Shown in pieces: positions 14,059 to 56,031 of a stretch of 64,000 nucleotides of DNA. The notes below the pieces were generated by a model. It did not search any database and had not been told where the DNA came from. It saw nothing but the letters and a program-made list of their open reading frames with translations. The stretch covers positions 30,088 to 94,087 of the forward strand of contig JAFQXD010000016.1 in NCBI GenBank assembly GCA_017407115.1, read 5' to 3'. The stretch is from Methanobrevibacter sp. Its GTDB lineage: Archaea > Methanobacteriota > Methanobacteria > Methanobacteriales > Methanobacteriaceae. Position 1 is the first letter of the stretch. Every line of letters begins with the position of its first letter. A program made the position numbers and the translations under genes.

Positions 14059-15211
14059 AAGTTTTTACAATCTAATTGGAGATGAAATTTCTCGTGAAAG
14101 CATTGTAGAAAAAATGATAGATTACTATAATGAAAAGTTAGAGCTTGGTGAAACTCGTGTAACTGATTTTAATGAAGGTTCAGAAATAAGAAACCTCTTA
14201 GAATCAATTGCTGTTGATTTATATGATTTAATGGAAGATAATTATGAAGCCACAAAAATTGCTTTTATATCAACCGCATATGGAGAATGGTTAGATTTAC
14301 ACGGAGAAAACCCATTAATCAATACTCCACGAGATACAGGTTCAGAAGCTGTTGGACTAGTAACTTTTACTATTCCAGTTGTTAGGGCAATGGATATTAT
14401 AATCCCAGAAGAAACAATACTTGTTTGTGAAGAGAATGATCTAGAATATGTTACTGACTCAGAAGCTGTTATCGTACCTGGAGAAACAAGTGTTGAAGTT
14501 TATTGTACTTGCTTAACTGTTGGAGAAGATGGAAATTGTAGTGCAAACACTATAACAATGATTGATGATGATAATATTGATAGTACAGTTGAAGTAACCA
14601 ATCCTGAAGCTTTTAGTGAAGGTAGTGATTATGAAGAAGATGATGATTACCGTGAAAGGCTTTTAAATGCTATCCGTATTGATAATTTTGGTAGTATTGG
14701 TTATTATCAAGAATTAGGTAATAATGTTGAAGGAGTTCATGATGTGTTATTAGTTGATGATGAAACATATACTCGTAAAATTATTGTTAATGGAGATGCG
14801 AAACCTGTTACAGAAGAAGTTTTAGTGAATGTTTTAAAAGAGTTCACTAGACCAGAAAATATAGTTTTAGGCCATAATTTTATAGTTGACTCTCCAGATT
14901 ATCTTGTTTTAAATTTACAATTGGATTTAATAGTAGAATATGAGTTTGAAGAGGATTTAATTATAAATAGGTTGCATTCATTCTTTGATGGTGGTATAAC
15001 AAGTGATGGTTATGATTTTAGCGGTTGTTTCATTGGCGAAACTTTAAATGAAACTTATCTATATTCCTGTTTGGAAAGTTTAGATGGGATTATAAGAGCT
15101 TCTGCTAGTATAAGTGGTAACCAATCAAATTTGAGTTCGCTCACTGTTAATAGTAATGAAGTAATTAAACTCGGTGATGTATTAATTAACCAAACATTAA
15201 TTGATGAATAA
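14042..15211 (+). CDS. Baseplate J-like protein
   Basis: It is 389 aa with a TTG start. Size, position and the ...YEEDDDYRERLL... region are typical of the baseplate J / XkdT family. Confidence 0.65.
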   Translation: MPVENESFYNLIGDEISRESIVEKMIDYYNEKLELGETRVTDFNEGSEIRNLLESIAVDLYDLMEDNYEATKIAFISTAYGEWLDLHGENPLINTPRDTGSEAVGLVTFTIPVVRAMDIIIPEETILVCEENDLEYVTDSEAVIVPGETSVEVYCTCLTVGEDGNCSANTITMIDDDNIDSTVEVTNPEAFSEGSDYEEDDDYRERLLNAIRIDNFGSIGYYQELGNNVEGVHDVLLVDDETYTRKIIVNGDAKPVTEEVLVNVLKEFTRPENIVLGHNFIVDSPDYLVLNLQLDLIVEYEFEEDLIINRLHSFFDGGITSDGYDFSGCFIGETLNETYLYSCLESLDGIIRASASISGNQSNLSSLTVNSNEVIKLGDVLINQTLIDE

Positions 15212-17727: not shown

Positions 17728-19319
17728 TAAAAATGTATTTTTCAAGTATAAACAATGCGGAATTAAAGCAATTTCATAAAGTTGTTCCTTATAATTTTAA
17801 TATTAGTTTAACTGATGCTTTATCATCTGATCTATTTCATATTGAAACTATTATACCAAATACATTATATCGTGTTTTCTTATTGTTTTATTGTGAGAAA
17901 ATAACTTCTAGTAATGATAATGATGTTGTTTTAGAGAATAAGTGTATTATTTGTAATAAAACAGATGAAGAAACATATTTTAATTTTATTTCCAATGATG
18001 AAAATAATATTATTCTTAAACATATAACTGATTATTATTCATTTGGAAATATGTTATCTGATGCTGAATTTAACAGTATTGTTCAATTATTGAGAGTAAA
18101 CAATCCATTTGCAGAAGATATACAAATTAAAAACAGTACTGTAAATGGCAAATATGGAACATATGTTTTTAACCTCAAATCAACTACTATTGTTGACAAT
18201 GGTGTTTTAATCACTAACGAAACATTATCTAGTATTGGTACTGTTAAATTAATTAATCCAACTTTCAAAAATAGTAATTACAAATTAAAATTAACTGTTT
18301 ATAGTTTATCTGATGTTAATGTTTGTGATGAGGCAAATACTGATAATATAGTTGAAACTGATTTAATAATTGATTTAATTCAAGGTTCAGAGGTTAATAT
18401 TCCTTTTAATACATTGGATTTGAATTGTATTGTTGGTTTTAATGCTGTTGTTAATATTACTCATGATTTGCCAGTTATTCAGTATCCTCAGAATATTGTT
18501 TTAACTAGTGATAAATTGAGTTGTATTATTGGAGAGTCAGTTACTTTAACAGCAACATTTGGAGAGGAAGATTCACCTTTAACAGATGAACCAATTACTT
18601 TTAAAAATAATGGTACTGTTTTAGGAACAGCAGTTACAAATTCTAACGGTGTTGCAAATTTTACTTATGCTCCATTAACAAGTGATAATTTGAATATTAC
18701 AGCAACTAACAGAGATGGTAAAATTATCTCAAATAATCTTGAAGTAGAAGTTAATAAAAAACCTACAACTATTTCTTTAAATGTTAATAGTAATAGTGTT
18801 GAATTAGATGATGATTTGATTTTGTCTGGTCATTTGGAGGGTAATGATGGCGCTTTAAGTGATTGTCCTGTTAGTATTGTAATAGGTCATAGAACATTGT
18901 ATTCTACAAGAACTGATGCTAACGGAGATTATTCTATAACAGATACAATTGAAGAATTATTTAGTGTTGATTTAAAAGCTGTTTATGAGGGAGATGCAAT
19001 TAACAGTAATTGTGAAAGTAGTTATGTTAATGTTAAAGGAGTGAAAAAATCAGTAACAGTTGTAAATGCTTATTCTCGTGGTACTGCGCCAGGTTTATTA
19101 AGTGGGAAATTAGTAACGAAAGATGGTACACCATTAGGAAATGTTCCAATCAGTATTCGTTGGGTAGGTTATAATACTGATATTACAACCAATTTAAGAA
19201 CAAATAGTGATGGAACATTCTCTGAAACATGTACTTCTGAATATTACATTGTTAATATGTATTTCAACTATGCTGGAGATGCAACCCACGATAGTTTCAG
19301 CAGGAGATATGGATGGTGA
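17724..19319 (+). CDS. Tail fibre protein with Ig-like repeat domains
   Basis: The ATG at 17724 overlaps the upstream TGA. The repeats ITFKNNGTVLGTAVTNSNGVANFTYAP and LSGHLEGNDGALSDCPVSIVIG...TDANGDYSI resemble bacterial-Ig and adhesin-like repeat units. Confidence 0.5.
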   Translation: MIKMYFSSINNAELKQFHKVVPYNFNISLTDALSSDLFHIETIIPNTLYRVFLLFYCEKITSSNDNDVVLENKCIICNKTDEETYFNFISNDENNIILKHITDYYSFGNMLSDAEFNSIVQLLRVNNPFAEDIQIKNSTVNGKYGTYVFNLKSTTIVDNGVLITNETLSSIGTVKLINPTFKNSNYKLKLTVYSLSDVNVCDEANTDNIVETDLIIDLIQGSEVNIPFNTLDLNCIVGFNAVVNITHDLPVIQYPQNIVLTSDKLSCIIGESVTLTATFGEEDSPLTDEPITFKNNGTVLGTAVTNSNGVANFTYAPLTSDNLNITATNRDGKIISNNLEVEVNKKPTTISLNVNSNSVELDDDLILSGHLEGNDGALSDCPVSIVIGHRTLYSTRTDANGDYSITDTIEELFSVDLKAVYEGDAINSNCESSYVNVKGVKKSVTVVNAYSRGTAPGLLSGKLVTKDGTPLGNVPISIRWVGYNTDITTNLRTNSDGTFSETCTSEYYIVNMYFNYAGDATHDSFSRRYGW

Positions 19320-19325: not shown

Positions 19326-21830
19326 ATGACTAATAGAACATTAACAGATGAAATAATCACTTTAATTCAAAGCGAAGCTAATAACAATCCTGCACCAAAA
19401 CCATGTAAAATAATTGGTAATTATGGTGAAACACCATATTCTGATGTTGAAATTGAGGATTTGGGGAAATTAATTCATAAAAAAACAATAGGTAGTACAA
19501 AAATAGGTTTGGAAGGGATTATTTGTTTTTTGAATGGTAATTTAAGTGATGGTGTTGTTATAACCTATGATGAATCAAGTATTCCTGAAATATTGTCTTT
19601 TTATCAAAAGAATACAATTGATTTGGTATATGCACTTGAAAATTATGGTAAAACTTCAAATAATGAATATTATTTATTTAGAGGTGATTGCTGGACAATT
19701 AACAATAATTTTGAAGCAAGTGCATCCATTACAAGTCGATCTGACAAGGATTTAAAAGTTACTGGAACTTTTCGTACACAAAATGATATTGTAGGATTAT
19801 ATTGGAATTCCAAAGATTTGATAGAACATCCTTATATTAGTTATGGTACTGTTAATGATTATTCTAATGTTATTTTAAGTTTCGATTATGAAATGACTGG
19901 TTGTAAAGACTTTTCAAATGGAACTATAAGTATTACAATTGGAAAAACTGATGGTTCAATATATTATTTAACCATGAACCGTTTTATTGAAAATAATCAT
20001 GTAACTATTGATTTTAGTAATCTTACATTATTAACCGGGAATATTTACATTGATGCAACTGGGGAGGAAATAACTGTTACTGAAACAACACCTCTTGATG
20101 TAACTGATATAGAATACATAATGTTTGTACTTGTTCCTCCTAATTATGTTGAAAACAAAGAACAGTACACCATTATTGATAATCTTGATTTTACATGTGA
20201 AATGTCAAATATTGAAGTTTCCAATGGCAAAATCCGTAATGAATTTATAATATTGGAATCTCATGAATATAGGTTATGTGAGGGTTATGATGATATTTAC
20301 AATTTAAATCCTCGTAGAATTTGTAAGGAAATGAGAAAACTCGGTTATACTGATTGGGTGGATTTATATGTTGGAGCTTCACATTTTTATGAAAAAAGTG
20401 GGATTGTTGGAGATATTATAAATATTGATGAAAATTCATTTAATCATAATCAAACTGAAAAAATGGTTTTAAATCCAAAAATACCTTTAAATAAAGCATT
20501 TATTAGTTGGTTAGATTGTTATTCTCGTGAATTAAAAGAGAATGGTACTGATAAACTCATTATTAGTGTTTCAATGGAAAATTTGCAATGTCCTGCAAGT
20601 TGGAGGCAAAAAACTAGTAGTGGAGATTATGCTTTAACTGGTTGGACACCATCTACATTCTTTTACAGTCCTTGCAACAATGAAGTTGTTGATTACATGG
20701 AATCAGTTAGTGAAAAATGTTTAGATATTGTTGTAGCAAATGGTTTACAACCTATTCTTCAAATGGGTGAGGCTTGGTGGTGGTGGAATGAAAATGACAA
20801 GCCAAATCAGCCGCCTTGTTTCTATGATGATGCGACTAGAAATAAATATTATAATACCTTTGGAGATTACATTCCTGAGTATTCTACATCATCTGAAGTG
20901 TACGATGAAGAAGTTACATCTTGGCTAAATCAACAACTTGTTAATTATAGTGATAAATTAAGAGGGGTTGTTAAAGACTCAAAATATGATAATGGTTTGT
21001 ATATGGCTTTATTTTTCCCACCTAGTGTTACTGATGTTGACAGAGTACCACCTATGATGAGAGAAGTAAACTATTTGAGAAAAGCATATGATCCATTGAA
21101 ATTAGATGTCCTTGAACTTGAAGATTATGATTGGGTTACTGGTGAAAGTAAGCACCATGATGAAGTATACTCTCTAGGAAATGAATTAGGATTTAGTGAA
21201 GATAGATTACATTATTATGGTGGTTTTGTTCAATATCCTGAAGATGCTCCGAAATTTTGGAATTTAATTTCAAAATCAATGGAGACTGCAATAAATAAGA
21301 AATTCAAAGAAGTCTTTGTTTGGGCTGGTTCTCAAGTGAGAAGAGATAGTAAATTCATAGGGCATTATTCTTTTGAGTTAATTCAAAGATTATTGGATTT
21401 AATTCCTGAAGTAAAATCTTATGATGATACAAATCTTAAGTCTAGGATAACTGCTTTAGAAAAGCAATCTTCATCTGTTGATACTGGTTGGGTTGATTTG
21501 AGTTTAACTGGTAATTTTTATAATTTTGATTCAAATAATCGTGTTCAATATCGTAAAGTTGGAAGTGATGTTCAAATCACTGGTCTTCCAGTACTTAATG
21601 CATATCCATCTGCATTAACTGAATTAATCATTGGAACATTACCTGAGGGTTTTAGACCAATCCGTGATGTTTCACATGTTTGTGAGTTAAAAGATGATGA
21701 TAAATTATGGACTTGTACAGTAAAATCTAATGGTGATGTAACATTTAACCGTTTACGTGATAATACAGGATTTGTTGCTGGAACAGCATTTGCAGACGTT
21801 TTAAAATTAAATGTAACATTTCTAATATAA
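19326..21830 (+). CDS. Large tail fibre / receptor-binding protein candidate
   Basis: It is 834 aa and is the last structural ORF before the lysin. A central Trp-rich region (MGEAWWWWNENDKPNQPPCFYDD) may be TIM-barrel-like, and there is a C-terminal beta-rich module. The function is inferred from position. Confidence 0.45.
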   Translation: MTNRTLTDEIITLIQSEANNNPAPKPCKIIGNYGETPYSDVEIEDLGKLIHKKTIGSTKIGLEGIICFLNGNLSDGVVITYDESSIPEILSFYQKNTIDLVYALENYGKTSNNEYYLFRGDCWTINNNFEASASITSRSDKDLKVTGTFRTQNDIVGLYWNSKDLIEHPYISYGTVNDYSNVILSFDYEMTGCKDFSNGTISITIGKTDGSIYYLTMNRFIENNHVTIDFSNLTLLTGNIYIDATGEEITVTETTPLDVTDIEYIMFVLVPPNYVENKEQYTIIDNLDFTCEMSNIEVSNGKIRNEFIILESHEYRLCEGYDDIYNLNPRRICKEMRKLGYTDWVDLYVGASHFYEKSGIVGDIINIDENSFNHNQTEKMVLNPKIPLNKAFISWLDCYSRELKENGTDKLIISVSMENLQCPASWRQKTSSGDYALTGWTPSTFFYSPCNNEVVDYMESVSEKCLDIVVANGLQPILQMGEAWWWWNENDKPNQPPCFYDDATRNKYYNTFGDYIPEYSTSSEVYDEEVTSWLNQQLVNYSDKLRGVVKDSKYDNGLYMALFFPPSVTDVDRVPPMMREVNYLRKAYDPLKLDVLELEDYDWVTGESKHHDEVYSLGNELGFSEDRLHYYGGFVQYPEDAPKFWNLISKSMETAINKKFKEVFVWAGSQVRRDSKFIGHYSFELIQRLLDLIPEVKSYDDTNLKSRITALEKQSSSVDTGWVDLSLTGNFYNFDSNNRVQYRKVGSDVQITGLPVLNAYPSALTELIIGTLPEGFRPIRDVSHVCELKDDDKLWTCTVKSNGDVTFNRLRDNTGFVAGTAFADVLKLNVTFLI

Positions 21831-21851: not shown

Positions 21852-22841
21852 ATGATTAAGAAAAATGAAATCAAAAAGATAGCGGATGCTATCAAAAATT
21901 ATGTTGTAAAAAACAAGAAAATACCAACTTCAATTGAAGTTAGTAATGTAAAACATAGTAAAAATGAATGTTTATACATATTAAGTTATGCTATAAACCA
22001 TCTAAATGAAGACATTGAAGTTAAATCAATTAAAAATGCCGGTGAACCGGTCAGCACTATTATTAATGAAAAAATTTATGAATCTGACTATAAAGACCAG
22101 GCCAAAAGATTAACTCAATATCTAAAACAAAATGCTAAAGCACCGAATTACATTAAATCTGTTAAATCTAAGACTTTGATTTCTCCTGATTTAGAGTTAT
22201 TTGCATTTGCAAAAATAATTTCTTATTATTATGCAAATAAAAGGCTGCCTAAATATTGTTCTTATAATTCAAATGATTTGAAAACCACTGTCAAATCTAA
22301 AAAAAATAATTGCAGTAATCCGTATAAATCATCTCCACATCCAACTAAAAGCGGTTGTGATGCAATGGGACAAAATACTGGTTATTATTGTGGAGTTTGT
22401 GCACTGCAACATTCATTGTTTAAATTTGGAATATATGTTTCTCAAAGTCAATTAGCATCTTGGGCCGGAACAACTTCAAGTGGGACTTCTCATCAAGGAA
22501 TTAGAACAGCTGTTGCAATGGTGAATAAAAAATACAATGTAAACATAACTGTTGAAGAGAAAAGTTTCAGTGATTTAGGTTTGGAAGGTCTTGCAAAACT
22601 AATCTGCAAAGATAATGTTGATATTATAACTCATATTTTGTACCGTCTTAAATGGGGGCATTATGAGTCTATTAATGAAATAAATATCAAAACCAAGATG
22701 CTTAAAATCTTAAACTCACTTGGAAACAAATGCTCAGGCAGTTGCTATTGTGGTTATGTTGAAGACAGATCACTAGCTTTGGAAAAACAATACTTCAGCG
22801 GAATTAGTCAAAAATCAATAATTATTTTAACAAAAAATTAG
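21852..22841 (+). CDS. Endolysin: pseudomurein-binding repeats plus a papain-fold cysteine peptidase (Pei-like pseudomurein endoisopeptidase candidate)
   Basis: Three N-terminal repeats end in (K/R)xPxY/S (KNKKIPTSIEV, QNAKAPNYIKS, ANKRLPKYCSY), as in PMBR units of PeiW/PeiP. The C-terminal domain has GYYCGVCALQHSL (C180) and KWGHYESI (H270). Confidence 0.7.
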   Translation: MIKKNEIKKIADAIKNYVVKNKKIPTSIEVSNVKHSKNECLYILSYAINHLNEDIEVKSIKNAGEPVSTIINEKIYESDYKDQAKRLTQYLKQNAKAPNYIKSVKSKTLISPDLELFAFAKIISYYYANKRLPKYCSYNSNDLKTTVKSKKNNCSNPYKSSPHPTKSGCDAMGQNTGYYCGVCALQHSLFKFGIYVSQSQLASWAGTTSSGTSHQGIRTAVAMVNKKYNVNITVEEKSFSDLGLEGLAKLICKDNVDIITHILYRLKWGHYESINEINIKTKMLKILNSLGNKCSGSCYCGYVEDRSLALEKQYFSGISQKSIIILTKN

Positions 22842-44279: not shown

Positions 44280-44430
44280 TCATTTTTAAGAAGTTGTTAA
44301 AAATTCTATTTTTGGATTATTATTTTTAATTTTCAATGGTTTTTAGTTATATTCAGTAAACTTTATTAATTAATATTATAATAATTAAATATGTATTTTG
44401 AATTTTTTTTAAACACTACAAAGGGTCATC

Positions 44431-47400
44431 ATGTTAAACAAATCATCAAATATAATCGAAAAGGAATTTAAAAATTTACGTAGGGAGTTATTAGACTTAA
44501 CTTTAAGAAACCAGCTTCTTAACTTTAAATCCAGAGCTAAAACCATTACTATAGTAAATCAGTCTCCCATAAACCTTTTCCAAACTTTAGTTCTGCAAAA
44601 CAGTAAGATGTATTTTGTAGCTAATAAAAAAGACAAAAAGGAAGACAAATCATCGGTATGGGATCATATACCATTTGATTTTTCAAAGTTTTCAGAAGGA
44701 GATAGGAAATTAGCTACCGATTTGACCCCAAAGGAACTTCAAAAAAGATTATATTACATTAACAACCAAGCAAAGACAATGCTTCAGGAACAGGGTTACA
44801 ATATCCTATACCTTGCCGTTGGATTTCTGGAATGGAAAGACAAATCAAAACCAAGGCAGAAAAACAAGGCGCCTCTGGTTTTAATTCCGGTTGCAATGGA
44901 GCGGAAAAAGGTTGGGGAATCATTCAACCTCGAATGGACTGGAGAGGATATTCAGACTAACATTTCTCTTAAAGCCAAACTGTTGGAAGCAGGTATAGAG
45001 CTTCCGGATTTCGAATTCAAACGATATGGTGAAGTCATAGACCATTATATCGCAAGCGTCAGGCGTGCTGTGTCACGTATGGATGGATGGGAAGTAAACA
45101 CAGATGTGGCCTTAGGATTTTTCAGTTTCACCAAATTTGTAATGTATAATGATTTGAATCCTGAAGCATGGGCGGACAATGTGGATTTAACCAAAAATGA
45201 ACTTATTCAAGCTATTTTCAATCCTGCCAAAAACGATCAGGAAGCATTCAGGGAAGAGGATATTGACTCCCAGCTTGAATATCGAACCATGTATCAGGTT
45301 TTGGATGCCGATTCATCACAGATTGCAGCAATTCAGGACGTTAAGGCAGGAAGGAACCTTGTGGTGGAAGGTCCACCCGGAACCGGTAAGTCACAAACAA
45401 TCGTAAATTTAATAGCAGAGCTATTGGCTGAAGGAAAATCAGTTCTTTTCGTATCAGAAAAGATGGCTGCTTTGGATGTTGTAAAGGACAGGCTTACAGG
45501 AGTGGGTCTTGGCAAATTTGTTTTGGAATTGCATTCACACAAAACCAGAAGGAAAAAATTCCTCAAAGACCTTCAAAAGGCAACCAATGTAAGGGCTCAG
45601 GAACCATTGAACATTGACCAGACCATTCGCAAACTGGAGACATTGCGCCGTCAGCTTGATGATTATTCTCAAATTATTCACAAACCTGTTTTTGCTGTAA
45701 ATCTATCAGCATTTCAGCTGTACGGTATGAAAGAAGCTGCCGATGATCATTTTGCACGTAAAGGAACTCTTATGCCATTGGTCAGGTTTGAAAATCCAGA
45801 AGAGGTCACCTTGAAGGACCTCGATGACATGAAAATTGCCTTGGAAAATCTTGCGGAATTGTATCAGACCATTTCAAAAGAGAATCCTTGGAGCAAATGT
45901 GCTCCAAAAAGTTTGCTTCCGGCTGATTTAAGGGAAATTGAAATGCTTATCAACGACTGCCTTTTAAGTCTGGACAATTTTTTAGTTGAACGTGGAAGAG
46001 TCTATGACATTTATGGAATAAAACAGCCTGATACTCTCAACGAATTTGAGAATTCACTTTCAGCATTTGAAATTATCAAGTCCCAAAACACAGAACTGAT
46101 TGATGGAAGCATCATAAGGTCAGGCGCATGGAACAACAACAATGATGATGCATTCCTATTGATTAGGGAACTTGAAAAATACCAGAAATACGCTCCAGCC
46201 CTTGATAAGTTCAATCAGTCCATATACCAGGCAGATATTGATCGCTTAATTGCGCAGCTTCATCAGATTTCAAATAAGAGATTCCGTTTATTCAACAATA
46301 CTCAGCACATTGAGCTTGTCGAGAGATATTATGCAGTGCCGGTTTCAGGAAGTGCAGATGATATCATCCGTGAGCTTAAACAGGCAAAGGCAATAATCAA
46401 AATCAGAAAAAATCTTGAAGCCAATGATGCATTGGGCCGCAAGTATTACGGAGGATACTGGCATTTGAATGCAGACCCTAATGATTTGAAGGCAATTGCC
46501 CGTTGGATGCACGAATTCACTGCACTTGTTCGTGATGGAACCTTTTCACAAAATACAATTGATTTGATGAGCAAGGACTTATTTGACATCAAACCCGAAA
46601 GGGACCTTGCGGAGTATATCGATGCAGGTGAAGAGTTTGTAAGGGTATTGTCAAGACTGAGAGACAAGCTGAACCCTAGAAGCAAACTGATATTTAAAAG
46701 AGAAACAGGAGACGTGCCATTTGAAGCATGGAAAGAACAGCTGTATACTTGGAGAGGACAGCTATCAAGCCTTCACTTATGGTCACAATACCTGAATACT
46801 AAAAATGCACTCAGAACTTCAAATGCTAAAATGTTCGTCGATTCAATCGAAAAGAGAAACATCAACAAGTATGATATTGAGGCATTGGTTGAGGGAAACT
46901 TTGCAGATTCACTTTTAAACATATTATTTGTAGAAAATCAGGAACTTGCCACATTCGTCGGCGAACTTCATGAAAACAGAATCCGTGAATTCAAGGATTT
47001 GGATAAAAAGATTCTTGTATTGAACAGAAAAAGAATTTTCCATAAGCTGAACAACAACATTCCAAAAATCTTTGGAGGAACTGAAAATCCGCAGGCAAAA
47101 ATACTTGCCGGAGAATTTACAAGAAAAAGCGGACACATGCCTGTCAGAAAGCTATTGGAAAGGGCAGGAGGTATGATAAAACAGATTAAACCTTGTTTCA
47201 TGATGTCTCCATTGTCCATTGCGCAATACTTGGATCCAACAAATGAAGAGCTTCAATTTGATGTTGTTATTTTCGACGAAGCAAGTCAGGTTAAACCTGA
47301 AGATGCACTGGGAGCATTCATGAGAGGAAAAACTGCAGTTGTAATGGGAGATACTCAACAATTGCCACCTACTTCATTTTTCGACCAGATGTCTGATGCA

Positions 47401-50400
47401 GACAGTGATGAAGAGGAGGCAACCTCACTTGATATGGAAAGTATCCTTCATTTATGTAAACTGTCATTCCCTGTTAAAATGCTTAAATGGCACTACAGGT
47501 CACGCCACGAATCACTGATTACAGTATCAAACAGAGAGTTTTATGACAATGACTTATTGGTATATCCTTCCCCGTCACACAACGACCCTGAACTCGGTTT
47601 GAAATTCCACTATAATCCGAACACTGCATATCACAGGGGAGCATCATCTGCAAACCCTCTTGAAGCGGAGGATGTTGTCGAAGAGATTTTCAACCACTTT
47701 GAAAAATATGGCGATACAAAAAGTTTAGGTGTCGGAACATTTTCAGTTGCTCAAAAAAATGCAATCCTGGAAGCTTTGGAAGTAAAACGTAAGGAAAGGC
47801 CTGAATTTGAACCTCTATTTTCAGACAACAAGGAAGAACGTTTCTTCGTCAAAAACCTTGAAACAATTCAGGGGGATGAAAGGGATGTCATTCTCATCAG
47901 TGTAGGTTACGGATATGACCAGGACGGAAAGATGTCATTAAACTTCGGTCCTTTAAACCAAGACGGTGGGGAAAGACGTTTGAATGTATTGATTACACGT
48001 GCAAGAGAAAAATGTGTAGTATTTTCCAACTTTAAAGCTTATGATATGAAATTAACCGCAAACCCACCATATGGTGTCAAATCCCTTAAAGAATTCCTTG
48101 AATATGCGGAAAACTTGACACTTGGAAATCCTCAGGGAGATGAATACTCAAAAGAACCGTTTGAAGATGCAATTGCCAGCTTTTTGGAGGAAAACGGCTA
48201 TACTGTAGACAGACAAATTGGATGTGCAGGATTTAGGGTTGATTTGGCAATTGTCGATGATGAAAATCCTGGAAAATATATCCTGGGAATCACAACCGAT
48301 GGAAAAATGTATTCTTCAAGCAAAGTAGCCCGTGATAGGGACAGGCTCCGTGAACAGGTATTGACTGGTCTTGGATGGAAACTATATCATTTATGGTCTA
48401 CAGACTGGTATAGAAACAGAGACCTGGGACGTAAAAAACTCCTTGAAAACGTTGAAAAATCAATTAAAAAAGCAAGAGAGGAAGAAAAACGCAGATCTGA
48501 AGAAGAGAAAAAATTGGCTGAGAAAAGAAGATTGGAAGCCGAGAAAAAAATGGAAGAATTGCGTTTGGCACGTGAAAAAGAAGAAAAAGAGCGTGCAGAA
48601 AAAGAGGCTGAAGTCAATTCTGAAGATATTGGACCAAGTGACTTTGTGGAAGTTGAAAAAGTCGATGATGGAGATGTTTTAGAAAAACCTATTGACGTCT
48701 CAGAAATAAATCCAGAAGAATTCTTCGGAGATGATGCAAAAGCTGATTCCAAAGACACTCCTGCTGATAGTAAAAGCGATTCTCAAGAAACTCCTTCAGA
48801 GTTTGTTGTTGCCAGTGAAGATGATGATAAGGTAGTTTATGAGGAAACTCCTTCAGAGTTTATTGTAGACAGTGAAGAAGATGAGGAAACTCCTTTAGAA
48901 TTCAGTGACGATAATTTAGATGATAATGCTTCTGGTGAGGAAGTTCCTTCAGACTCCTTGAAAGAGGATGACGAAAAATCTGATTTGGATGATGTGCCGC
49001 AGGACGATGTGGAACCTAGTGAAAATATCGAAGATATTCCAGCTGACGATGATTCAAAAGATGAAGTGATTGCCGATAATCAATCAGATGAAACTTCAAA
49101 CGAGGATATGGAAGTCTGGGAAACCGATGAAGAACCGGACAATCAGGATGATGACAAGGAAGTTTGGGAATCTGATGAGGGTGTTTCACCTGAAGACAAT
49201 GCCGAAGTCTGGGAAGATGAAACTGATTACACAGATGATGAATCCGATAATAAATCATTTAAGGAAAAGGTAAAATCATTCTTTAAACATGAGGGAGATG
49301 AGACTTCATCTAAAAATTCATTATTCTCATCACTTAAATTTGAAAAGGATTTGGGTGAAAATTCAGATTTGGAAGATGAAATACAAAATGATGTATCAGA
49401 ATCCCTAAACAAAAATATTGATGATGATAAGGTTGATTTGGGTTCTGATGATGATTACATTTATGTTGACCACAGCAATGATGAAGTAATTGAAGATATT
49501 GAGGAGCCGACCGCTCCTAATATTGAGGATTACGTTGCAAAAGATGATACTGATTATTCAATCGATGAGGAACCTATAGATGAAATCCAGCCTGATGATG
49601 AGGTTAAAAAAGACAATATCAAAAAACCTGTCTTCAGTGACAGGATAAACATAAAATCCGATGAAGATTACCAAGAGGAAAATATTGATTTTGATTCCAG
49701 AAATGTCGATGACGAACCTGCAATGCAAGATAATTCAGATTCTGAAATTGTTAATGACGAGGATAAGGTTGATTTGGGTTCTGATGATGATTACATTTAT
49801 GTTGACCACACTAATGATGAGATGTCTGAGGAAACTCAAAATCCTCAGGAAGACTCTGAAGATGATGATTTCGAAAATAAACCTCAGGAATTCAAGGTAC
49901 AAAACCAGTCCAAAAGATCCAACTTCGTAAAATCAATCATTTCAGAAGTAGTCAGCGGTGAATCCAGATTGGACCCTGATGAAATAGAAGTGGTTCGAGG
50001 CGAAATTATTGAAGAGGATATTCCTGAATCCAAACCTGCTCCTAACGATGAAAATGTTGTCGAAGCGGAAATTGTAAATGGAGATTCTTTCGATGAAGAG
50101 ATTTTAGAAAAGCCAACTCCGAAACATGATTATTTTGAAGACGATGAGGAACTCAACATTTTTACTGATGAACTGCCTGACTTGAGTCATGATGAATATG
50201 AAGAAATTCATGAAGAAGCAACCGAGGTCATTAACAAGGCCATGAGTGAATTCATGAACGATGTATTTGAAAATGATGATTTGGATATTGAAGAGGACAG
50301 TTCCTTTGAAGAATCAATTCAGGATAGATATGTTGACGAAGAGATAATTGATGATGCCTCTGGTGAAATTAATATTGATGATGAGATTGATGATTCTGGA

Positions 50401-51549
50401 GATATTAATATTGCTGATGAGAAACCTGCTGAAGATATAATTGAAGATGACAATACCGGTGAAGAAACCTCTGAAGAGGTTGTATACTTTAAAGGAGCCA
50501 CTGACGTTACCAATCCTTTAAGAAAGAACAATGTTTACTACAGTGAGAATAAAAACAAATCTTTAAGAGATTCAATTAAAGGAATTAAAAAGGATATGCA
50601 GTACATCAACAAGTCTCTAAATGAAATTGAAAATCCAACTCAAATTGATTATGTTTCTGTTGTAGACAGGACAGAGGAATATGACCCTAATGACTACTTG
50701 TCAAGACCAAGTGATGACGATTCTGATAGGATTATTCAAATGGAAGAGGAATTGACATTTGCCGAAAAAGAAGAGCAAAGAATAGAAAATGAACTTGCTG
50801 AAGATTCATTTGAAAGTGAAATCCTTCAAGATGATGATGTTATCATAACAGTTAATGAACTTCATATGCGTGAAGAGCTTAAAGATCAGGCTCTGGAAAA
50901 CATTATCCAAACAGCAAATGAAGATTATAAGGAAATTGAAAAGGAAAGGTTCCAGAATGCCAACAAACTGAAAGCATTTGATGACCAGAAACTTCCAGGC
51001 AAAAGGAAACTGGAAGATGAAATAATTGATTATGTTCAGGCTACAGATATTGGTCTGACTCCTCAAAATGATTTGTATGCCCAACCAATTCCAAAGGTTG
51101 CTCAGTCTGTAAAGAATATCGTTGATATTGAAGGCCCTATCCATGTCAAGGAAATAACCTCAAGAATTAAGGAAAGCTGCAATATCAAAAGGGCAGGATC
51201 AAATCTGAAAAAGACTGTTAAACTAGCTGTTGATGAGGCTGAAAAATCAGGATACATTATTAAAATTGGAGATTTCCTATATGATGCTTCAAATAATAAT
51301 GTGGTAATAAGGAAAAGAAACAAGCCTAATATAGAATTGATTTCTGATGAGGAGATTGCAAAAAGCATAGAACTTGTTCTCATTCACAAGCAAAATGTTT
51401 CAACAGGTCAAATCGCAAAAGAGGCTTCACGCAATTTCGGATTCAAATCCACCTCCAAAAAGACTGCTTCCAGAATAAATGGTGTTTTGGATTTGATGAT
51501 TGCAAACAATCGTGTTAAAATAGTCAATGATTATGTGGAATTGAATTAG
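44431..51549 (+). CDS. Giant DUF4011 / SF1 (Upf1-like) helicase / Vsr-like PD-(D/E)xK nuclease / polyacidic linker / DUF3320 protein
   Basis: It has Walker A (EGPPGTGKSQT, nt ~45371), motif II (VIFDEASQV, ~47272), QLPPT, KWHYRSRHESL, IQGDERDV and LNVLITRAREK. The nuclease-like part is FRVDLAIVD...ITTDGKMY...GWKLYHLWSTDW (~48154-48420). The C-terminal 175 aa are DUF3320-like. Confidence 0.8.
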   Translation: MLNKSSNIIEKEFKNLRRELLDLTLRNQLLNFKSRAKTITIVNQSPINLFQTLVLQNSKMYFVANKKDKKEDKSSVWDHIPFDFSKFSEGDRKLATDLTPKELQKRLYYINNQAKTMLQEQGYNILYLAVGFLEWKDKSKPRQKNKAPLVLIPVAMERKKVGESFNLEWTGEDIQTNISLKAKLLEAGIELPDFEFKRYGEVIDHYIASVRRAVSRMDGWEVNTDVALGFFSFTKFVMYNDLNPEAWADNVDLTKNELIQAIFNPAKNDQEAFREEDIDSQLEYRTMYQVLDADSSQIAAIQDVKAGRNLVVEGPPGTGKSQTIVNLIAELLAEGKSVLFVSEKMAALDVVKDRLTGVGLGKFVLELHSHKTRRKKFLKDLQKATNVRAQEPLNIDQTIRKLETLRRQLDDYSQIIHKPVFAVNLSAFQLYGMKEAADDHFARKGTLMPLVRFENPEEVTLKDLDDMKIALENLAELYQTISKENPWSKCAPKSLLPADLREIEMLINDCLLSLDNFLVERGRVYDIYGIKQPDTLNEFENSLSAFEIIKSQNTELIDGSIIRSGAWNNNNDDAFLLIRELEKYQKYAPALDKFNQSIYQADIDRLIAQLHQISNKRFRLFNNTQHIELVERYYAVPVSGSADDIIRELKQAKAIIKIRKNLEANDALGRKYYGGYWHLNADPNDLKAIARWMHEFTALVRDGTFSQNTIDLMSKDLFDIKPERDLAEYIDAGEEFVRVLSRLRDKLNPRSKLIFKRETGDVPFEAWKEQLYTWRGQLSSLHLWSQYLNTKNALRTSNAKMFVDSIEKRNINKYDIEALVEGNFADSLLNILFVENQELATFVGELHENRIREFKDLDKKILVLNRKRIFHKLNNNIPKIFGGTENPQAKILAGEFTRKSGHMPVRKLLERAGGMIKQIKPCFMMSPLSIAQYLDPTNEELQFDVVIFDEASQVKPEDALGAFMRGKTAVVMGDTQQLPPTSFFDQMSDADSDEEEATSLDMESILHLCKLSFPVKMLKWHYRSRHESLITVSNREFYDNDLLVYPSPSHNDPELGLKFHYNPNTAYHRGASSANPLEAEDVVEEIFNHFEKYGDTKSLGVGTFSVAQKNAILEALEVKRKERPEFEPLFSDNKEERFFVKNLETIQGDERDVILISVGYGYDQDGKMSLNFGPLNQDGGERRLNVLITRAREKCVVFSNFKAYDMKLTANPPYGVKSLKEFLEYAENLTLGNPQGDEYSKEPFEDAIASFLEENGYTVDRQIGCAGFRVDLAIVDDENPGKYILGITTDGKMYSSSKVARDRDRLREQVLTGLGWKLYHLWSTDWYRNRDLGRKKLLENVEKSIKKAREEEKRRSEEEKKLAEKRRLEAEKKMEELRLAREKEEKERAEKEAEVNSEDIGPSDFVEVEKVDDGDVLEKPIDVSEINPEEFFGDDAKADSKDTPADSKSDSQETPSEFVVASEDDDKVVYEETPSEFIVDSEEDEETPLEFSDDNLDDNASGEEVPSDSLKEDDEKSDLDDVPQDDVEPSENIEDIPADDDSKDEVIADNQSDETSNEDMEVWETDEEPDNQDDDKEVWESDEGVSPEDNAEVWEDETDYTDDESDNKSFKEKVKSFFKHEGDETSSKNSLFSSLKFEKDLGENSDLEDEIQNDVSESLNKNIDDDKVDLGSDDDYIYVDHSNDEVIEDIEEPTAPNIEDYVAKDDTDYSIDEEPIDEIQPDDEVKKDNIKKPVFSDRINIKSDEDYQEENIDFDSRNVDDEPAMQDNSDSEIVNDEDKVDLGSDDDYIYVDHTNDEMSEETQNPQEDSEDDDFENKPQEFKVQNQSKRSNFVKSIISEVVSGESRLDPDEIEVVRGEIIEEDIPESKPAPNDENVVEAEIVNGDSFDEEILEKPTPKHDYFEDDEELNIFTDELPDLSHDEYEEIHEEATEVINKAMSEFMNDVFENDDLDIEEDSSFEESIQDRYVDEEIIDDASGEINIDDEIDDSGDINIADEKPAEDIIEDDNTGEETSEEVVYFKGATDVTNPLRKNNVYYSENKNKSLRDSIKGIKKDMQYINKSLNEIENPTQIDYVSVVDRTEEYDPNDYLSRPSDDDSDRIIQMEEELTFAEKEEQRIENELAEDSFESEILQDDDVIITVNELHMREELKDQALENIIQTANEDYKEIEKERFQNANKLKAFDDQKLPGKRKLEDEIIDYVQATDIGLTPQNDLYAQPIPKVAQSVKNIVDIEGPIHVKEITSRIKESCNIKRAGSNLKKTVKLAVDEAEKSGYIIKIGDFLYDASNNNVVIRKRNKPNIELISDEEIAKSIELVLIHKQNVSTGQIAKEASRNFGFKSTSKKTASRINGVLDLMIANNRVKIVNDYVELN
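49426..49484 (+). repeat. Direct repeat copy 1 inside the acidic region (encodes DKVDLGSDDDYIYVDHSNDE)
   Basis: A 49-nt stretch is identical to 49762-49810, and the 59-nt stretch differs by 2 mismatches. Confidence 0.85.
49762..49820 (+). repeat. Direct repeat copy 2 (encodes DKVDLGSDDDYIYVDHTNDE)
   Basis: It lies 336 nt (112 codons) downstream of copy 1, in the same frame. Confidence 0.85.
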
Positions 51550-51558
51550 GTGAGATTT

Positions 51559-53310
51559 ATGTCAACAAAGGTTAAATCTCCTGATAATCTGCCAAATAAG
51601 CCTGGCGTATATATTATGCGTGATGCATCAGACACCATAATCTATATAGGAAAGGCCAAAAATCTTGTAAAAAGGGTTAAATCTTATTTTCGAGAAAAGC
51701 TTGACAGGCCAAAAACCCAAATTTTGATGAGCCATTTCGACAGTCTGGAATATATTGTAACCAATTCCGAAAAGGAAGCTCTTATTTTAGAGGCTACACT
51801 GATTAAAAAGCATCGCCCAAGATATAACGTTCAGCTAAAGGACGATAAAAGATATCCTTATGTAAAGATAACAGATGAGAAGTTTCCACGTCTTCTGATT
51901 ACAAGAAACGTTACCAAGAACGGTATTTATTACGGTCCTTTTACCGATGTGGGATCAGTTAAGCAGACTGTTAAATTTTTAAAATCATTATTTAAAATCA
52001 GGACATGCCGCAATATGGATGGGCCATGCCTTAACTCTCAAATTGATTTGTGCTATGCTCCATGTGATGGAAAAATCACTGAAAAGGAATATTCCGAGAT
52101 AATAAATAAGATTGATTTGTTTTTCCAGGGTAAATATTCCGCTATTGTAAGGAATCTTAAAGATGAAATGATGCAGGCAGCCGAAAATGAGGAATATGAA
52201 AAGGCGGCAGTCATAAGAGACCAGATTGCATCAATAGAAGAAATCATGGAAAAACAGTTTGTAGACCTGGTTGATGATGATTTGGATCAGGATGTAATAG
52301 CCATTGCTCCGGGAGATGATGAGGTCGTTGTCATTATAATGCCTATTAGAAACGGTAAGATTGTGGGCCGTGATGACTTTTTGATGAGCGCCTCCCAGTA
52401 TGATTCATCATCCGAAATCATGTTTGCTTTTATCCAGCAGTACTACGGATACAATCGCCATGTTCCAAAACAGATTCTTTTGGATGAGGACATTGACGAA
52501 AAGCAATTGCTTGAAGAATGGCTGAGCGATTTGAGAGGAAATAAGGTTAGCATCAAGGTTCCTCAAAAGGGCGTCAAATTACGTTTGGTTAAAATGGCCC
52601 GTAAAAATGCTGAAATCATCAAACATCAAAAGAAAAAGATGGAGTCTGCATTGATTGAACTTAAGAAATACCTGAAGCTTGAAAGATTGCCTCATGTCAT
52701 TGAAGGGTATGACATAAGTAACATTTCAGGCAAATTTGCTGTGGGTTCAAAAGTATCGTTTAAGGACGGAAAACCTAACAAAAAGAAGTATAAACATTTC
52801 AGAATGGAAACTCCGGGACCAAACGATTTTGCCATGATGGAGGAATTGCTGACTCGCAGATTGAAAATGGTGGACAGAGACCCCGAACCTGACCTGATAG
52901 TAATTGATGGAGGTAAGGGACAGCTTGGTATGGCATGTGGCGTATTGGAGAAATTGAATCTCACTCATATTCCAATCATCGGGCTTGCAAAGGAATTTGA
53001 AGAGATATTTATTCCAAATTCGTCTCGCCCTATTATAATTCCAAAAAACAATCAGGCACTGCATTTGCTTCAGCAGGTGAGGGATGAATCACATCGCTTT
53101 GCTATAACTTATCATAGAAAACTTCGCAGTAAGGATATATCAGCCTCTTCGCTTGATGATATTGCTGGAATCGGTAAAAAACGAAAGATAAATCTTTTAA
53201 AAGAATTTAAAACAATTGATAATATTAAAAATGCTTCTGTAGAGGAATTAGCTAAAATAGAGGGTATGAATCAAAAAACGGCTGAAAATGTCTATAATTA
53301 TTATCACTAA
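51559..53310 (+). CDS. uvrC: Excinuclease ABC subunit C
   Basis: It has a GIY-YIG N-terminus (PGVYIMRD...IIYIGKAKNL), the UvrB-interaction region (YEKAAVIRDQI), an endonuclease domain and a C-terminal HhH. The SD AGGTGA overlaps the helicase stop. Confidence 0.95.
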   Translation: MSTKVKSPDNLPNKPGVYIMRDASDTIIYIGKAKNLVKRVKSYFREKLDRPKTQILMSHFDSLEYIVTNSEKEALILEATLIKKHRPRYNVQLKDDKRYPYVKITDEKFPRLLITRNVTKNGIYYGPFTDVGSVKQTVKFLKSLFKIRTCRNMDGPCLNSQIDLCYAPCDGKITEKEYSEIINKIDLFFQGKYSAIVRNLKDEMMQAAENEEYEKAAVIRDQIASIEEIMEKQFVDLVDDDLDQDVIAIAPGDDEVVVIIMPIRNGKIVGRDDFLMSASQYDSSSEIMFAFIQQYYGYNRHVPKQILLDEDIDEKQLLEEWLSDLRGNKVSIKVPQKGVKLRLVKMARKNAEIIKHQKKKMESALIELKKYLKLERLPHVIEGYDISNISGKFAVGSKVSFKDGKPNKKKYKHFRMETPGPNDFAMMEELLTRRLKMVDRDPEPDLIVIDGGKGQLGMACGVLEKLNLTHIPIIGLAKEFEEIFIPNSSRPIIIPKNNQALHLLQQVRDESHRFAITYHRKLRSKDISASSLDDIAGIGKKRKINLLKEFKTIDNIKNASVEELAKIEGMNQKTAENVYNYYH

Positions 53311-53410: not shown

Positions 53411-53947
53411 ATGGTTAGATGTCCAAGATGTGGATATGAGAACGCAACCTCATCCACGTATTGTGATAACTGTGGCTACATTCTTTCCACTCAAACTCAA
53501 AACCCAAGTAATTCAAAAAGAAAAAAAGGCTGGAATGTGGGCATAGCTAAAAAGATTGTAATCGTTATGGGTATAATCGTTATCGCATTATTATTGTTTT
53601 CTTTTGTTTATAATAATTCCCAACCTTCTCATAATGATACTTTAAATGTATTTTACGATGATGGAAGTAACCATCAATCTTCTACTTATCCATTCAAAGT
53701 TGTAATCAAATACGACGGTAATTGGTATGCCAAAATGGGAAATCCGGATTACCTTGTAGAAAGATCAAGTTCAGGCACAAAAACATACTCACTGGATTGC
53801 GCTGCCTGGGATGATGTTCAAATCGAAGCTCAAAAATACGGCGGTTCAGGTCAGCTTCAAATTCAACTTTTAAGAAATGGTAAGGTTGTAGCTGAAAACT
53901 CAACTACAGATGGTTCTGATAGTGTTTCATTATATTTTGACAGTTAG
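53411..53947 (+). CDS. Zinc-ribbon membrane protein, unknown function
   Basis: It has an N-terminal CPRCGYEN...CDNCGY motif, one TM helix and an extracytoplasmic beta-rich domain. Confidence 0.55.
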   Translation: MVRCPRCGYENATSSTYCDNCGYILSTQTQNPSNSKRKKGWNVGIAKKIVIVMGIIVIALLLFSFVYNNSQPSHNDTLNVFYDDGSNHQSSTYPFKVVIKYDGNWYAKMGNPDYLVERSSSGTKTYSLDCAAWDDVQIEAQKYGGSGQLQIQLLRNGKVVAENSTTDGSDSVSLYFDS

Positions 53948-54249: not shown

Positions 54250-54324
54250 TTGTTTTTTAATATGTCAATATAAAATATAAATAGTTTCATGAATAATATT
54301 GTATTATTAAAAGGGGCATTAAGA

Positions 54325-56031
54325 ATGATAAAAGTTGAAAATGTAAGTAAAGACTATGAATTGGATGATGGAACTAAGGTCACAGCACTTAAGGATGTCA
54401 GTTTTGAAGTTAAGGAAGGAGAAATCTTAGGAATCATGGGAAAAAGCGGTTCCGGTAAAACTACACTTTTAAGGGCTTTAAGAGGAGTCGAACATATCGA
54501 CAGCGGCAGTATAACTGTTGGTGATGTTACCGTTAAAGCAGGACAATCCCAATTTTATTACAATAATCTTAAAAAGGAAACTGCAATTCATCTTCAAAGG
54601 TCTTTTGGATTATGGCCTGATACAGTACGTGAAAACGTATTGAGAAAATTGTATGCGAGAAACTATTTCGATGAAAGTGACACTAATTTTGAAACTGCCG
54701 AAAGTGAATTCGGTGATGAGGCAGATGAACTTCTGGAATTGGTTTCCTTAACTCATAAAAAAGACCACTATGCATCAGTCTTAAGTGGCGGTGAAAAACA
54801 AAGGCTTATTATGGCCCGTCAACTTGCAAAACAACCTAAAGCTTTACTTCTTGATGAACCTGCCACTATGGCATGCCCTAAAACCAAACAGGAAATATTG
54901 GATGCCGTTAAAAAAATCAATGAAGAATTGAATATTACTGTTATTATTATATCTCACCTGCCCGATGTCCAAAAATACCTTGCAGACAGAGTGATATTAC
55001 TTGAAGACGGAGAAATCACCGATGAAGGAACTCCCGAAGAAATCTGTGACAAGTTCATGGCAGATATGGCACCTATTGTTGATATTCAAAATATCTCCAC
55101 TGATGAAGATGTCATTGAAGCTAAAGACCTTAAAAAACGTTTCTATCTGTTGACAGGTGGTGAAGTTCTTGAAATGGAAGATATAAACTTCAAGGTTCAA
55201 AAAGAAAATATTTTAAGCATCATCGGTCCAAGTGGTGCAGGTAAAACAGTCCTTTTAAGGATGTTGGGAGGACTTGAAGAGCCTGATGACGGGGATGTGT
55301 TGTATTATGTCGATGACGAATGGAGAGATATTGAAATTCCTGGAATCAGCCGTATGAAAATACGCTCCAAATTGGGTTTTATGCATCAGGAGTTTTCACT
55401 TGTCCACTATTCAACCGTTTTAAGCCAGCTTGCTACAAGATTGGGGTATAAAAACCAGGACATTGTTAAGGATGCACAGGAAAGGGCAAGAAAAATAGGC
55501 ATTGGTGAGGAATTGTTGGACTCATTTTATCTTTTAACTGATTTGCCTGAAACCGAGGCAAAACATCGTTTGGAACAAATTGGGCTTGATGCTGAAATTC
55601 TCAATGATTTGTTCCCAAGGTTCCCTGAAACTGCAACCAGAGAAGCTGTAGCAGATATTTTTGAAAACCTTGATTTGGATTTGGACATATTGCCTAGAAA
55701 ATCTTATGAATTGTCTGGCGGTCAGCAGGTCCGTGTAATGCTTGCGTTAATCTTAGTTTCAAGACCTAAATTCCTGCTTTTAGATGAACCTTTCGGTGAT
55801 CTCGACCCGGTTACTTTAAGGGATGTTACCAATTCTCTTAAAAAGATTTCCAAAGAATATGGAATTACCATTGTAATGATTTCACATAATACTGACTTCA
55901 TCAAGGAATTAAGCAACAGGGCACTGTTTATGGATGACGGCAAAATCATTGATGACAGCGAAAACATCGATGAAATTGTCGATAATTTCATTGATTTCTG
56001 CCATGCGGATTATCTGAAGGGTGGTTGCTAG
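54325..56031 (+). CDS. Tandem ABC ATPase, methyl-coenzyme M reductase component A2 (AtwA)-like
   Basis: It has two ATP-binding cassettes (GKSGSGKTT / LSGGEKQR / LLLDEP and GPSGAGKTV / LSGGQQVR / LLLDEP) and no TM domain. Size and organisation fit the A2 family. Confidence 0.55.
   Translation: MIKVENVSKDYELDDGTKVTALKDVSFEVKEGEILGIMGKSGSGKTTLLRALRGVEHIDSGSITVGDVTVKAGQSQFYYNNLKKETAIHLQRSFGLWPDTVRENVLRKLYARNYFDESDTNFETAESEFGDEADELLELVSLTHKKDHYASVLSGGEKQRLIMARQLAKQPKALLLDEPATMACPKTKQEILDAVKKINEELNITVIIISHLPDVQKYLADRVILLEDGEITDEGTPEEICDKFMADMAPIVDIQNISTDEDVIEAKDLKKRFYLLTGGEVLEMEDINFKVQKENILSIIGPSGAGKTVLLRMLGGLEEPDDGDVLYYVDDEWRDIEIPGISRMKIRSKLGFMHQEFSLVHYSTVLSQLATRLGYKNQDIVKDAQERARKIGIGEELLDSFYLLTDLPETEAKHRLEQIGLDAEILNDLFPRFPETATREAVADIFENLDLDLDILPRKSYELSGGQQVRVMLALILVSRPKFLLLDEPFGDLDPVTLRDVTNSLKKISKEYGITIVMISHNTDFIKELSNRALFMDDGKIIDDSENIDEIVDNFIDFCHADYLKGGC

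Follow-up and report, generated by a model that had tools for sequence, protein, structure and literature searches.

A 2372-aa helicase–nuclease, encoded in a 64,000-nt stretch of DNA from the rumen methanogen Methanobrevibacter sp. (GenBank assembly GCA_017407115.1, contig JAFQXD010000016.1, positions 30,088 to 94,087 of the forward strand; the whole stretch is hereafter called the window), is directly followed by uvrC, and comparison across species indicates vertical inheritance and conserved synteny for this chromosomal gene in Methanobrevibacter. We give about an even chance to the reading that this enzyme is a vertically inherited DNA helicase–nuclease recruited to, or retained for, UvrC-linked genome maintenance, a role inferred from its gene neighbourhood and conservation; as the job of the protein, DNA repair is judged somewhat more likely than classical defence. 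New here are the conserved coupling to uvrC, the recurrent repair-gene neighbours in Methanobacteriales, and a giant disordered insertion of conserved charge.

The helicase gene and its coupling to uvrC

The gene, its presumed promoter and the start of uvrC are arranged in the window as follows.

44280..44430, + strand: AT-rich intergenic region of 151 nt, presumed promoter of the helicase–uvrC unit (sequence read)
44431..51549, + strand: helicase–nuclease gene, the whole 2372-aa open reading frame (ORF) including the stop; ATG start, the only long ORF there
51550..51555, + strand: GGTGAG, Shine-Dalgarno-like site for uvrC, directly 3′ of the helicase TAG
51559..53310, + strand: uvrC, 583 aa, with GIY-YIG, UVR, UvrC RNase H-like and HhH domains (Pfam; gene call)

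An earlier note on this DNA had described a single uninterrupted ORF of 7.1 kb, and this was borne out: the frame is ATG-initiated, comprises 2372 codons and closes with a TAG stop at 51547-51549, in surroundings of ~35-40% GC, a composition rich in chance stop codons. The ORF is confirmed as a real gene and not a chance frame, because 10 public contigs encode the very same protein among the same neighbours and relatives are present in at least 80 species-level Methanobacteriaceae genomes. The ATG of uvrC lies 9 nt past the helicase stop in the same orientation. The only sizeable intergenic stretch upstream in the unit is the 151-nt region, in which TATA-like tracts, such as TTAAATAT ~40 nt 5′ of the ATG, and an AAGGGT ribosome-binding site could be read. 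Helicase and uvrC are therefore likely, judging from this spacing, to form one two-gene transcription unit.

Relatives were scanned with one genome per species, which gave 201 genomes with a relative, and the best 80 of the 201 were examined over aa 1-1400. All 80 belong to Methanobrevibacter or close Methanobacteriaceae and are 63-97% identical over this part, with M. gottschalkii, M. thaueri, M. millerae and Methanobrevibacter strain YE315 as close named relatives. Relatives that are complete, free of gaps and at least 70% identical all have the uvrC start 5-27 nt past the helicase stop, and three apparent exceptions to this spacing turned out to be assembly gaps (N-runs) within the acidic region of the helicase gene. 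Of 52 loci whose sequence extends at least 2.5 kb past the helicase gene, 37 carry uvrC downstream. The pair is kept even with both outer flanks changed, as in DSM 116169 (locus L055), in which the order is adhesin–helicase–UvrC, and in locus L075, in which it is M42 peptidase–helicase–UvrC; the latter order is also found in M. wolinii (L084), with a gap of 880 nt. The simplest history is an ancestral order M42–helicase–UvrC that was later broken on either side. Operon-like linkage to a uvr gene is thus found in the window and in its relatives, but not in all lineages that carry the helicase.

Evolutionary rates were compared with five species, and since synonymous divergence (dS) was saturated (>1 or not computable), only nonsynonymous divergence (dN) and amino-acid identity were used. 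The helicase core, defined as the first 1,400 residues, had a dN of 0.02-0.07 and UvrC one of 0.035-0.056, while HisA, the cation-efflux protein, PfkB and the ABC ATPase had dN values above that of the core. Amino-acid identities of the core and UvrC ran in pairs of 92/92, 81/84, 72/72 and 94/95%, and the C-terminal part of the helicase was 45-85% identical across the species compared. By these measures the core appears to be as constrained as UvrC. Similarity falls with taxonomic distance in Methanobacteriales, from 63-97% within Methanobrevibacter to 58% in Methanobacteriaceae, 50% in Methanothermobacter (1595 aa) and 45% in Methanobacterium (1729 aa); a Methanosarcina relative stands at 44%, a Methanomethylovorans homolog was also found, and outside the genus only methanogens are found among the nearest named relatives. 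Because identity tracks that of UvrC and falls with taxonomic distance, inheritance of the housekeeping, vertical type is indicated. Core status of a family member has a precedent in Pseudomonas aeruginosa, in which a DUF4011 gene is core, is present in every isolate and forms the fixed flank of a defence hotspot (PMC10250203).

The surroundings of the gene in the window are of housekeeping character. Upstream are genes for IMPDH, L37ae, Pcc1, prefoldin beta, DUF3194, a HisA-like protein, a pilin/Ig-like protein, a cation-efflux protein and a PfkB kinase, and downstream are those for UvrC, a Zn-ribbon protein, a double-ABC ATPase, Usp, ferredoxin, geranylgeranyl reductase (GGR), an epimerase and PurF. 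Searching ten window neighbours against the PADLOC models gave no match besides generic ABC-ATPase similarity, and a tRNA gene search of the window found none. What the earlier note had named as evidence against a defence role is largely what was found in Methanobrevibacter, namely housekeeping flanks, conserved synteny, UvrC-like constraint and no defence neighbours.

Several side observations concern these loci. The Zn-ribbon gene (window 53411-53947, + strand) follows uvrC in every helicase–UvrC locus, down to 33% identity, for instance at 17964-18494 in L055 and 10151-10681 in L075, and the conserved unit may be helicase–UvrC–Zn-ribbon; in M. acididurans (L079, 18442-19260) a Zn-ribbon protein is encoded two genes after the helicase, though uvrC is absent there. 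The double-ABC ATPase (580 aa, 54289-56031, + strand), 74-92% identical across the species compared, showed moderate matches to the PADLOC models mad3, mad8 and AriA, which probably reflect generic ABC similarity and not defence. Two contigs labelled 'Bacteroidaceae bacterium', L043 (CAVDAS010000015.1) and L062 (CAVCAD010000011.1), encode a helicase of 81-82% identity, and L043 shares the Methanobrevibacter synteny PfkB–helicase–UvrC–Zn-ribbon–ABC–GGR; both almost certainly consist of archaeal sequence that was binned wrongly. In an M. olleyae-like genome, a 582-aa GIY-YIG protein two genes upstream of the helicase (L063, 6679-8427, + strand) has the length of UvrC and only an N-terminal GIY-YIG domain; it was considered as a divergent UvrC and rejected, as only the GIY-YIG motif aligns.

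Domain anatomy, acidic linker and family placement

The helicase–nuclease is an intact multidomain DNA enzyme, extending from DUF4011 to tandem winged helices, with the following parts.

44485..44982, + strand: DUF4011 domain, aa 19-184 (Pfam PF13195, E 6e-46)
45298..45615, + strand: first part of RecA-like domain 1, with Walker A GPPGTGKSQT at aa 314-323 (Pfam, motifs, model)
45616..47190, + strand: all-helical insertion of ~525 aa in helicase domain 1, aa 396-920 (AlphaFold; predicted local distance difference test, pLDDT, mostly 80-95)
47191..48030, + strand: remainder of helicase domain 1 and domain 2, aa 921-1200 (AAA_11, AAA_12, motifs, invariant columns, Foldseek)
48160..48450, + strand: Vsr-like / MTES_1575 (DUF559-like) nuclease, aa 1244-1340 (Pfam, E 1.9e-30)
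48418..48621, + strand: single long K/E-rich helix of 68 residues leaving the nuclease, aa 1330-1397 (composition and model)
48637..50550, + strand: acidic disordered linker of about 640 residues, aa ~1403-2040 (composition, charge, model)
50563..50982, + strand: helical segment before the winged helices, aa 2045-2184 (helices in model)
51028..51546, + strand: C-terminal tandem winged-helix module, aa 2200-2372 (Pfam and model)

The four modules that had been proposed from the letters (DUF4011, helicase, nuclease and DUF3320) were each recovered by Pfam above the gathering score, and every motif quoted in support was found, with GPPGTGKS at 314, DEASQ at 949, QLPPT at 977, YRSRHESL at 1022, QGDERD at 1147, VLITRAREK at 1186, FRVDLAIVD at 1268, ITTDGKMY at 1287 and LWSTDW at 1321. 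DUF4011 lies within an alpha/beta module at the N-terminus (aa ~1-250, pLDDT about 80-88 in the AlphaFold model), in which the family-invariant residues, including G122, L126, P148 and P153, are all kept. In an alignment-based AlphaFold model of aa 1-1200 (pLDDT 82.8, predicted template modelling score 0.65), this module is followed by two RecA-like domains split by the helical insertion, which is the least conserved stretch of the enzymatic core; the Pfam helicase matches, AAA_11 and AAA_12, cover aa 294-357 and 1008-1200. Foldseek assigned the motor to the Upf1-like helicases of superfamily 1B (SF1B) at a probability of 1.00, with Senataxin/Sen1, Upf1, IGHMBP2, Aquarius, Dna2 and ZNFX1 as matches, and sequence searches of the Protein Data Bank (PDB) agreed with an Upf1-like motor. 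The same PDB searches returned no solved structure for any member of the DUF4011/DUF3320 helicase–nuclease family, and Foldseek searches with whole models gave no separate structural match for DUF4011 or the helical insertion.

In the model of aa 1201-2372, the nuclease folds compactly as alpha-beta-beta-beta-alpha-beta and matches 3r3p, the Vsr-like catalytic domain of the homing endonuclease I-Bth0305I, with a template modelling score (TMt) of 0.71, and 3hrl, a DUF559-type protein, with a TMt of 0.69; a profile search matched it to the RAP domain and likewise to 3hrl. All of its family-conserved residues are kept (D1271, D1290, R1301, R1303, D1304, R1305, W1322, S1323, D1325 and W1326). At the C-terminus, the helical segment at aa 2045-2184 is moderately conserved (0.5-0.8 among 45 Methanobrevibacter-type homologs) and is followed by two H-H-H-beta-beta winged-helix units modelled at pLDDT 92-98, inside which lies DUF3320 (aa 2214-2260, Pfam E 6e-12) and for which Foldseek returned SelB WH2-4 and AlkX/YcaQ. 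These two units correspond to the winged helix-turn-helix overlapping DUF3320 that was noted by Anantharaman et al. (PMC3710099). In a MAFFT alignment of 61 sequences, consisting of the query and 60 diverse relatives, all 210 positions conserved at 90% or more are kept by the query, including Walker A and B, the arginine fingers, E2234, P2236, R2245, R2294, R2296 and E2308, on which grounds we predict a catalytically competent enzyme. A search of the protein for a PIP-box-like motif, Q..[LIVM]..[FYW][FYW], found none.

The linker between nuclease and winged helices accounts for the unusual length of the protein, as the earlier note had supposed: collinear relatives, typically of 1,550-1,620 aa, have a short linker where the query has the acidic insertion. 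Asp and Glu make up 25-46% of each 100-aa block across aa 1401-2200, the net charge of the linker is -209, disorder is predicted over aa ~1403-2040 (pLDDT 31-43), and a Pfam search of the linker gave no match. Among 45 complete Methanobrevibacter-type homologs, linker length varied from 349 to 1018 aa and net charge from -42 to -263, while the sequence was weakly conserved (0.1-0.3 identity, many indels), with a dN of 0.25-0.45 versus 0.02-0.07 for the core. Conserved charge without conserved sequence, as read from these alignments, is the signature of a functional disordered region, and the linker is probably an intramolecular DNA mimic or autoinhibitor. As a charge-conserved, sequence-variable tether of 350-1,000 residues, it would be an unusually large example of such a possible DNA-mimic autoinhibitor.

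Repeats in the linker are only short and degenerate. A 69-nt direct repeat of 93% identity, at 49416-49484 and 49752-49820, encodes DKVDLGSDDDYIYVDH, one of the few islands of the linker that are conserved across species, and degenerate tandem units of 42-57 nt, encoding EETPSEF(V/I)V, were seen at 48765-48976. Many contigs of metagenome-assembled genomes end or carry N gaps inside this acidic, repeat-containing region (L003, L004, L007, L009, L012, L013, L015, L016, L019-L021, L023, L025 and others), and N-runs within it were found in L024, L029 and L052. Because contigs break there, many truncated database entries arise as 'DUF4011 domain-containing protein, partial' of ~1,480-1,900 aa.

The protein is a member of the large DUF4011/DUF3320 helicase–nuclease family, which comprises 8,975 representatives at 50% clustering (E below 1e-30). 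Using PADLOC, the best match was PDC-S37 (1655.2 bits, E 0), with Hhe at 695 bits; the PDC-S37 alignment is collinear, from query aa 8-1395 to profile positions 5-1382 of 1550, plus a second matched stretch. Using NCBIfam, the best match was ProA (NF058533) at 1330.5 bits, under the 1500-bit cut-off, with query aa 10-1408 aligned to profile positions 357-1759 of 1903, so that the N-terminal ~356 positions of the profile are without counterpart; Hhe (NF042953) scored 921.9 bits in a fragmented match, under its cut-off of 2000 bits. Because both curated equivalog cut-offs (Hhe and ProA) were missed, the protein is best filed, on its profile scores, under the candidate defence family PDC-S37. The Hhe likeness that had been claimed in the earlier note therefore holds in part: the architecture (DUF4011, SF1 helicase, Vsr-like nuclease) and homology are shared, but Hhe is not the closest model and both thresholds were missed. 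The PDC systems are 145 untested candidates, put forward on the grounds that a homolog had turned up within a locus of the BREX, DISARM or type I restriction-modification kind (bioRxiv 10.1101/2024.01.29.577857). A literature search found no paper describing ProA as an anti-phage protein or PDC-S37, and the supplementary tables of an archaeal defence survey held no PDC-S37 or Hhe entry as text.

Genome maintenance or antiviral defence

The alternative in the title of the earlier note, 'defence or repair', was shifted by these results: the conserved uvrC coupling favours the repair half, and the housekeeping, syntenic context weakens the defence half. Other Methanobacteriales add to this picture. 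In Methanothermobacter and Methanorudis, the homolog is directly preceded by genes for an MrfA-like helicase (DEAD plus MZB) and an RNase_H_2 exonuclease, a combination known from the MrfAB repair pair, and in Methanobacterium by one for an XPD/DinG-like helicase.

L083 3780-7186; L076 4276-9498; L089 6143-7879: repair-type genes upstream of the homolog in Methanothermobacter, Methanorudis and Methanobacterium loci

That three kinds of DNA-repair gene adjoin the helicase across Methanobacteriales by chance is unlikely. Outside this order, the homolog of Methanosarcina sp. MTP4 has a housekeeping context, haloarchaeal plasmids carry a homolog, and phage genomes almost never carry a near-full-length one.

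If the enzyme serves genome maintenance, its winged helices and DUF4011 would bind DNA, and nicks, gaps or flaps, UvrC-made ones among them, would offer the SF1B motor the single-stranded DNA on which to load; from there it would unwind while moving 5′ to 3′, a direction suggested by family membership only. The Vsr-like nuclease, whose cleavage activity is likewise expected from what is known of its family, would cut the displaced or aberrant strand. The role could then be post-incision strand removal or back-up processing, analogous to that of UvrD in bacteria, in the service of excision or crosslink repair in a lineage with UvrABC borrowed from bacteria. The acidic tether probably shields the nuclease and DNA-binding domains as long as the enzyme is not engaged, and restriction of viral DNA could be a side effect of this action on aberrant DNA. 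A bolder version, which we regard as rather unlikely, is that a DUF4011 defence-family enzyme was domesticated in Methanobacteriales as a dedicated UvrABC partner, filling the UvrD strand-removal step and carrying an acidic DNA-mimic autoinhibitor; much of the PDC-S37/DUF4011–DUF3320 family would then be devoted to genome-integrity repair and not to defence.

Several findings weigh against a maintenance role tied to UvrC. Relatives of 63-68% identity, including an M. olleyae-like clade, M. acididurans and others, keep the order FrhB–M42–helicase without an adjacent uvrC, and no uvrC was found within 5.8-8.2 kb downstream of the helicase stop in the M. olleyae-like, M. acididurans, Methanorudis, Methanobinarius and Methanosarcina loci. 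Co-transcription in the window is deduced from spacing alone, and a TATA-like TTAAAATA inside the helicase 3′ end, ~40 nt before uvrC, could give uvrC a promoter of its own. UvrD is an SF1A helicase moving 3′ to 5′, and the enzyme studied here would be no like-for-like substitute for it. Where members of the family have been given a function by name, it is that of an anti-phage protein (Hhe and ProA, as named in NCBIfam). In addition, the surroundings of some relatives count against it: BrxL and an SNase-family gene are near the Methanothermobacter copy, a 42%-identical homolog on a metagenome contig without assigned organism follows a type III restriction-modification pair, another homolog is carried on a mobilizable Vibrio plasmid, flanked by DUF262 (GmrSD-like) genes and a relaxase, and 46 plasmid records contain a near-full-length homolog.

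The main rival, to which we give a substantial though minority probability, is an antiviral system of one gene, akin to Hhe, ProA and PDC-S37, which has become a fixture of the Methanobrevibacter chromosome. Its helicase would sense aberrant DNA metabolism during infection, its nuclease would degrade viral and/or host DNA, and the position next to uvrC would be a historical accident or reflect shared regulation. Core defence genes are not without precedent, the homology to PDC-S37 and Hhe in PADLOC and to ProA and Hhe in NCBIfam is strong, the restriction-gene and plasmid contexts of relatives and BrxL near the Methanothermobacter copy fit this explanation, and a provirus-like module in the same window indicates that virus pressure exists. 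The behaviour of Hhe also fits: in E. coli it is triggered by several T7 DNA-metabolism genes, and expression of g40, a candidate trigger gene of Bas63, is toxic only in Hhe cells (PMC11482910). However, both curated equivalog cut-offs were missed and PDC-S37 is itself only a candidate family. The context of the gene is not that of a defence or mobile island, and the neighbours are without defence matches. The position is conserved over many species, genes of three DNA-repair types adjoin the helicase in Methanobacteriales, and the rate at which its core evolves is as low as that of UvrC, whereas immune genes usually evolve fast.

The trigger behaviour of Hhe would equally suit an enzyme acting on abnormal DNA intermediates, which makes a dual genome-integrity role conceivable. 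One activity would then act on any aberrant end, nick or flap, serving repair in uninfected cells and restriction during infection, conceptually like Hachiman, a helicase–nuclease described as sensing DNA damage (PMC10925250). Such an enzyme would reconcile the repair-gene adjacency in methanogens with the restriction-gene and plasmid contexts further out, and it agrees with Hhe being triggered by phage DNA-metabolism functions and not by one protein (PMC11482910); the idea is purely inferential, hard to tell from the repair and antiviral readings, and in our judgement improbable. A helicase–nuclease of RNA surveillance is very improbable. Upf1-like enzymes often act on RNA, and the best structural matches of the motor are the RNA-acting Senataxin/Sen1, Upf1 and IGHMBP2, but the DNA enzyme Dna2 is also among these matches, the fused nuclease is of the DNA-acting Vsr/DUF559/homing-endonuclease type, and the partner gene is uvrC.

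The provirus-like tail and lysis module mentioned above spans window positions 1-23000 (+ strand), ~21 kb and roughly 20 housekeeping genes away from the helicase. GC is 0.26-0.31 over most of this region versus 0.35-0.39 further right, and host genes resume with HisG at 24903. Its recognizable genes are given below.

11243-13636, + strand: transglutaminase-like protein
14042-15211, + strand: Baseplate_J
17715-19319, + strand: Ig-like protein
19326-21830, + strand: non-contractile tail sheath protein
21852-22841, + strand: pseudomurein-binding-repeat protein, probably a lysin

The assignment matters for counts of immune systems: pipelines of the PADLOC type would list one, on the strength of this gene, for almost all rumen Methanobrevibacter genomes, and should the gene in fact serve repair, 'defensome' censuses of archaea and of the rumen are too high for the PDC-S37-type family. 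How excision repair is completed in archaea with borrowed bacterial UvrABC is poorly known, and a helicase–nuclease in a two-gene unit with uvrC is a concrete candidate for this step. The pairing with repair genes in methanogens versus restriction genes in more distant relatives also lends itself to the study of how enzymes of repair and of immunity turn into one another.

Comparison with known systems

PDC-S37 relatives, of the length given above, share the domain order of the query, which differs from them in having the extra acidic disordered insertion between nuclease and winged helices. It differs also in context, as the query stands in a housekeeping neighbourhood coupled to uvrC, whereas PDC systems were predicted from homologs embedded in defence loci; an association with defence loci was absent from the window and the orthologous loci and was seen only for some more distant relatives. 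Compared with ProA, the query lacks the N-terminal extension of ~356 positions that the ProA profile carries. Hhe is reportedly a single-gene anti-phage system, attributed to Gao et al. in 2020, and the models of it used here were NCBIfam NF042953, described as 'DUF4011 domain-containing anti-phage protein', and PADLOC PDLC02194. The query resembles it in combining DUF4011, an SF1 helicase and a Vsr-like nuclease in a single polypeptide and differs from it in genomic context; by profile scores, Hhe appears to be a distant sister of the query and not its ortholog.

Dna2 is similar in fusing an SF1B motor, matching in fold and motifs, to a PD-(D/E)xK-type DNA nuclease, but the nuclease of the query is C-terminal and of the Vsr/DUF559 type, whereas that of Dna2 is of the RecB type. 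Relative to the Upf1-like helicases and Dna2, the query adds the large helical insertion, DUF4011 and the tandem winged helices, and homology to them was detected in the motor only. UvrD, of a different superfamily branch and opposite polarity (SF1A, 3′ to 5′), has no nuclease, and a Foldseek comparison of the query with it was insignificant (probability 0.18). In bacterial UvrABC repair, UvrD removes the incised strand after the UvrC cut (PMC7690668). The likeness of the query to UvrD is that of a helicase genetically linked to the UvrC step, with a putative analogy in function.

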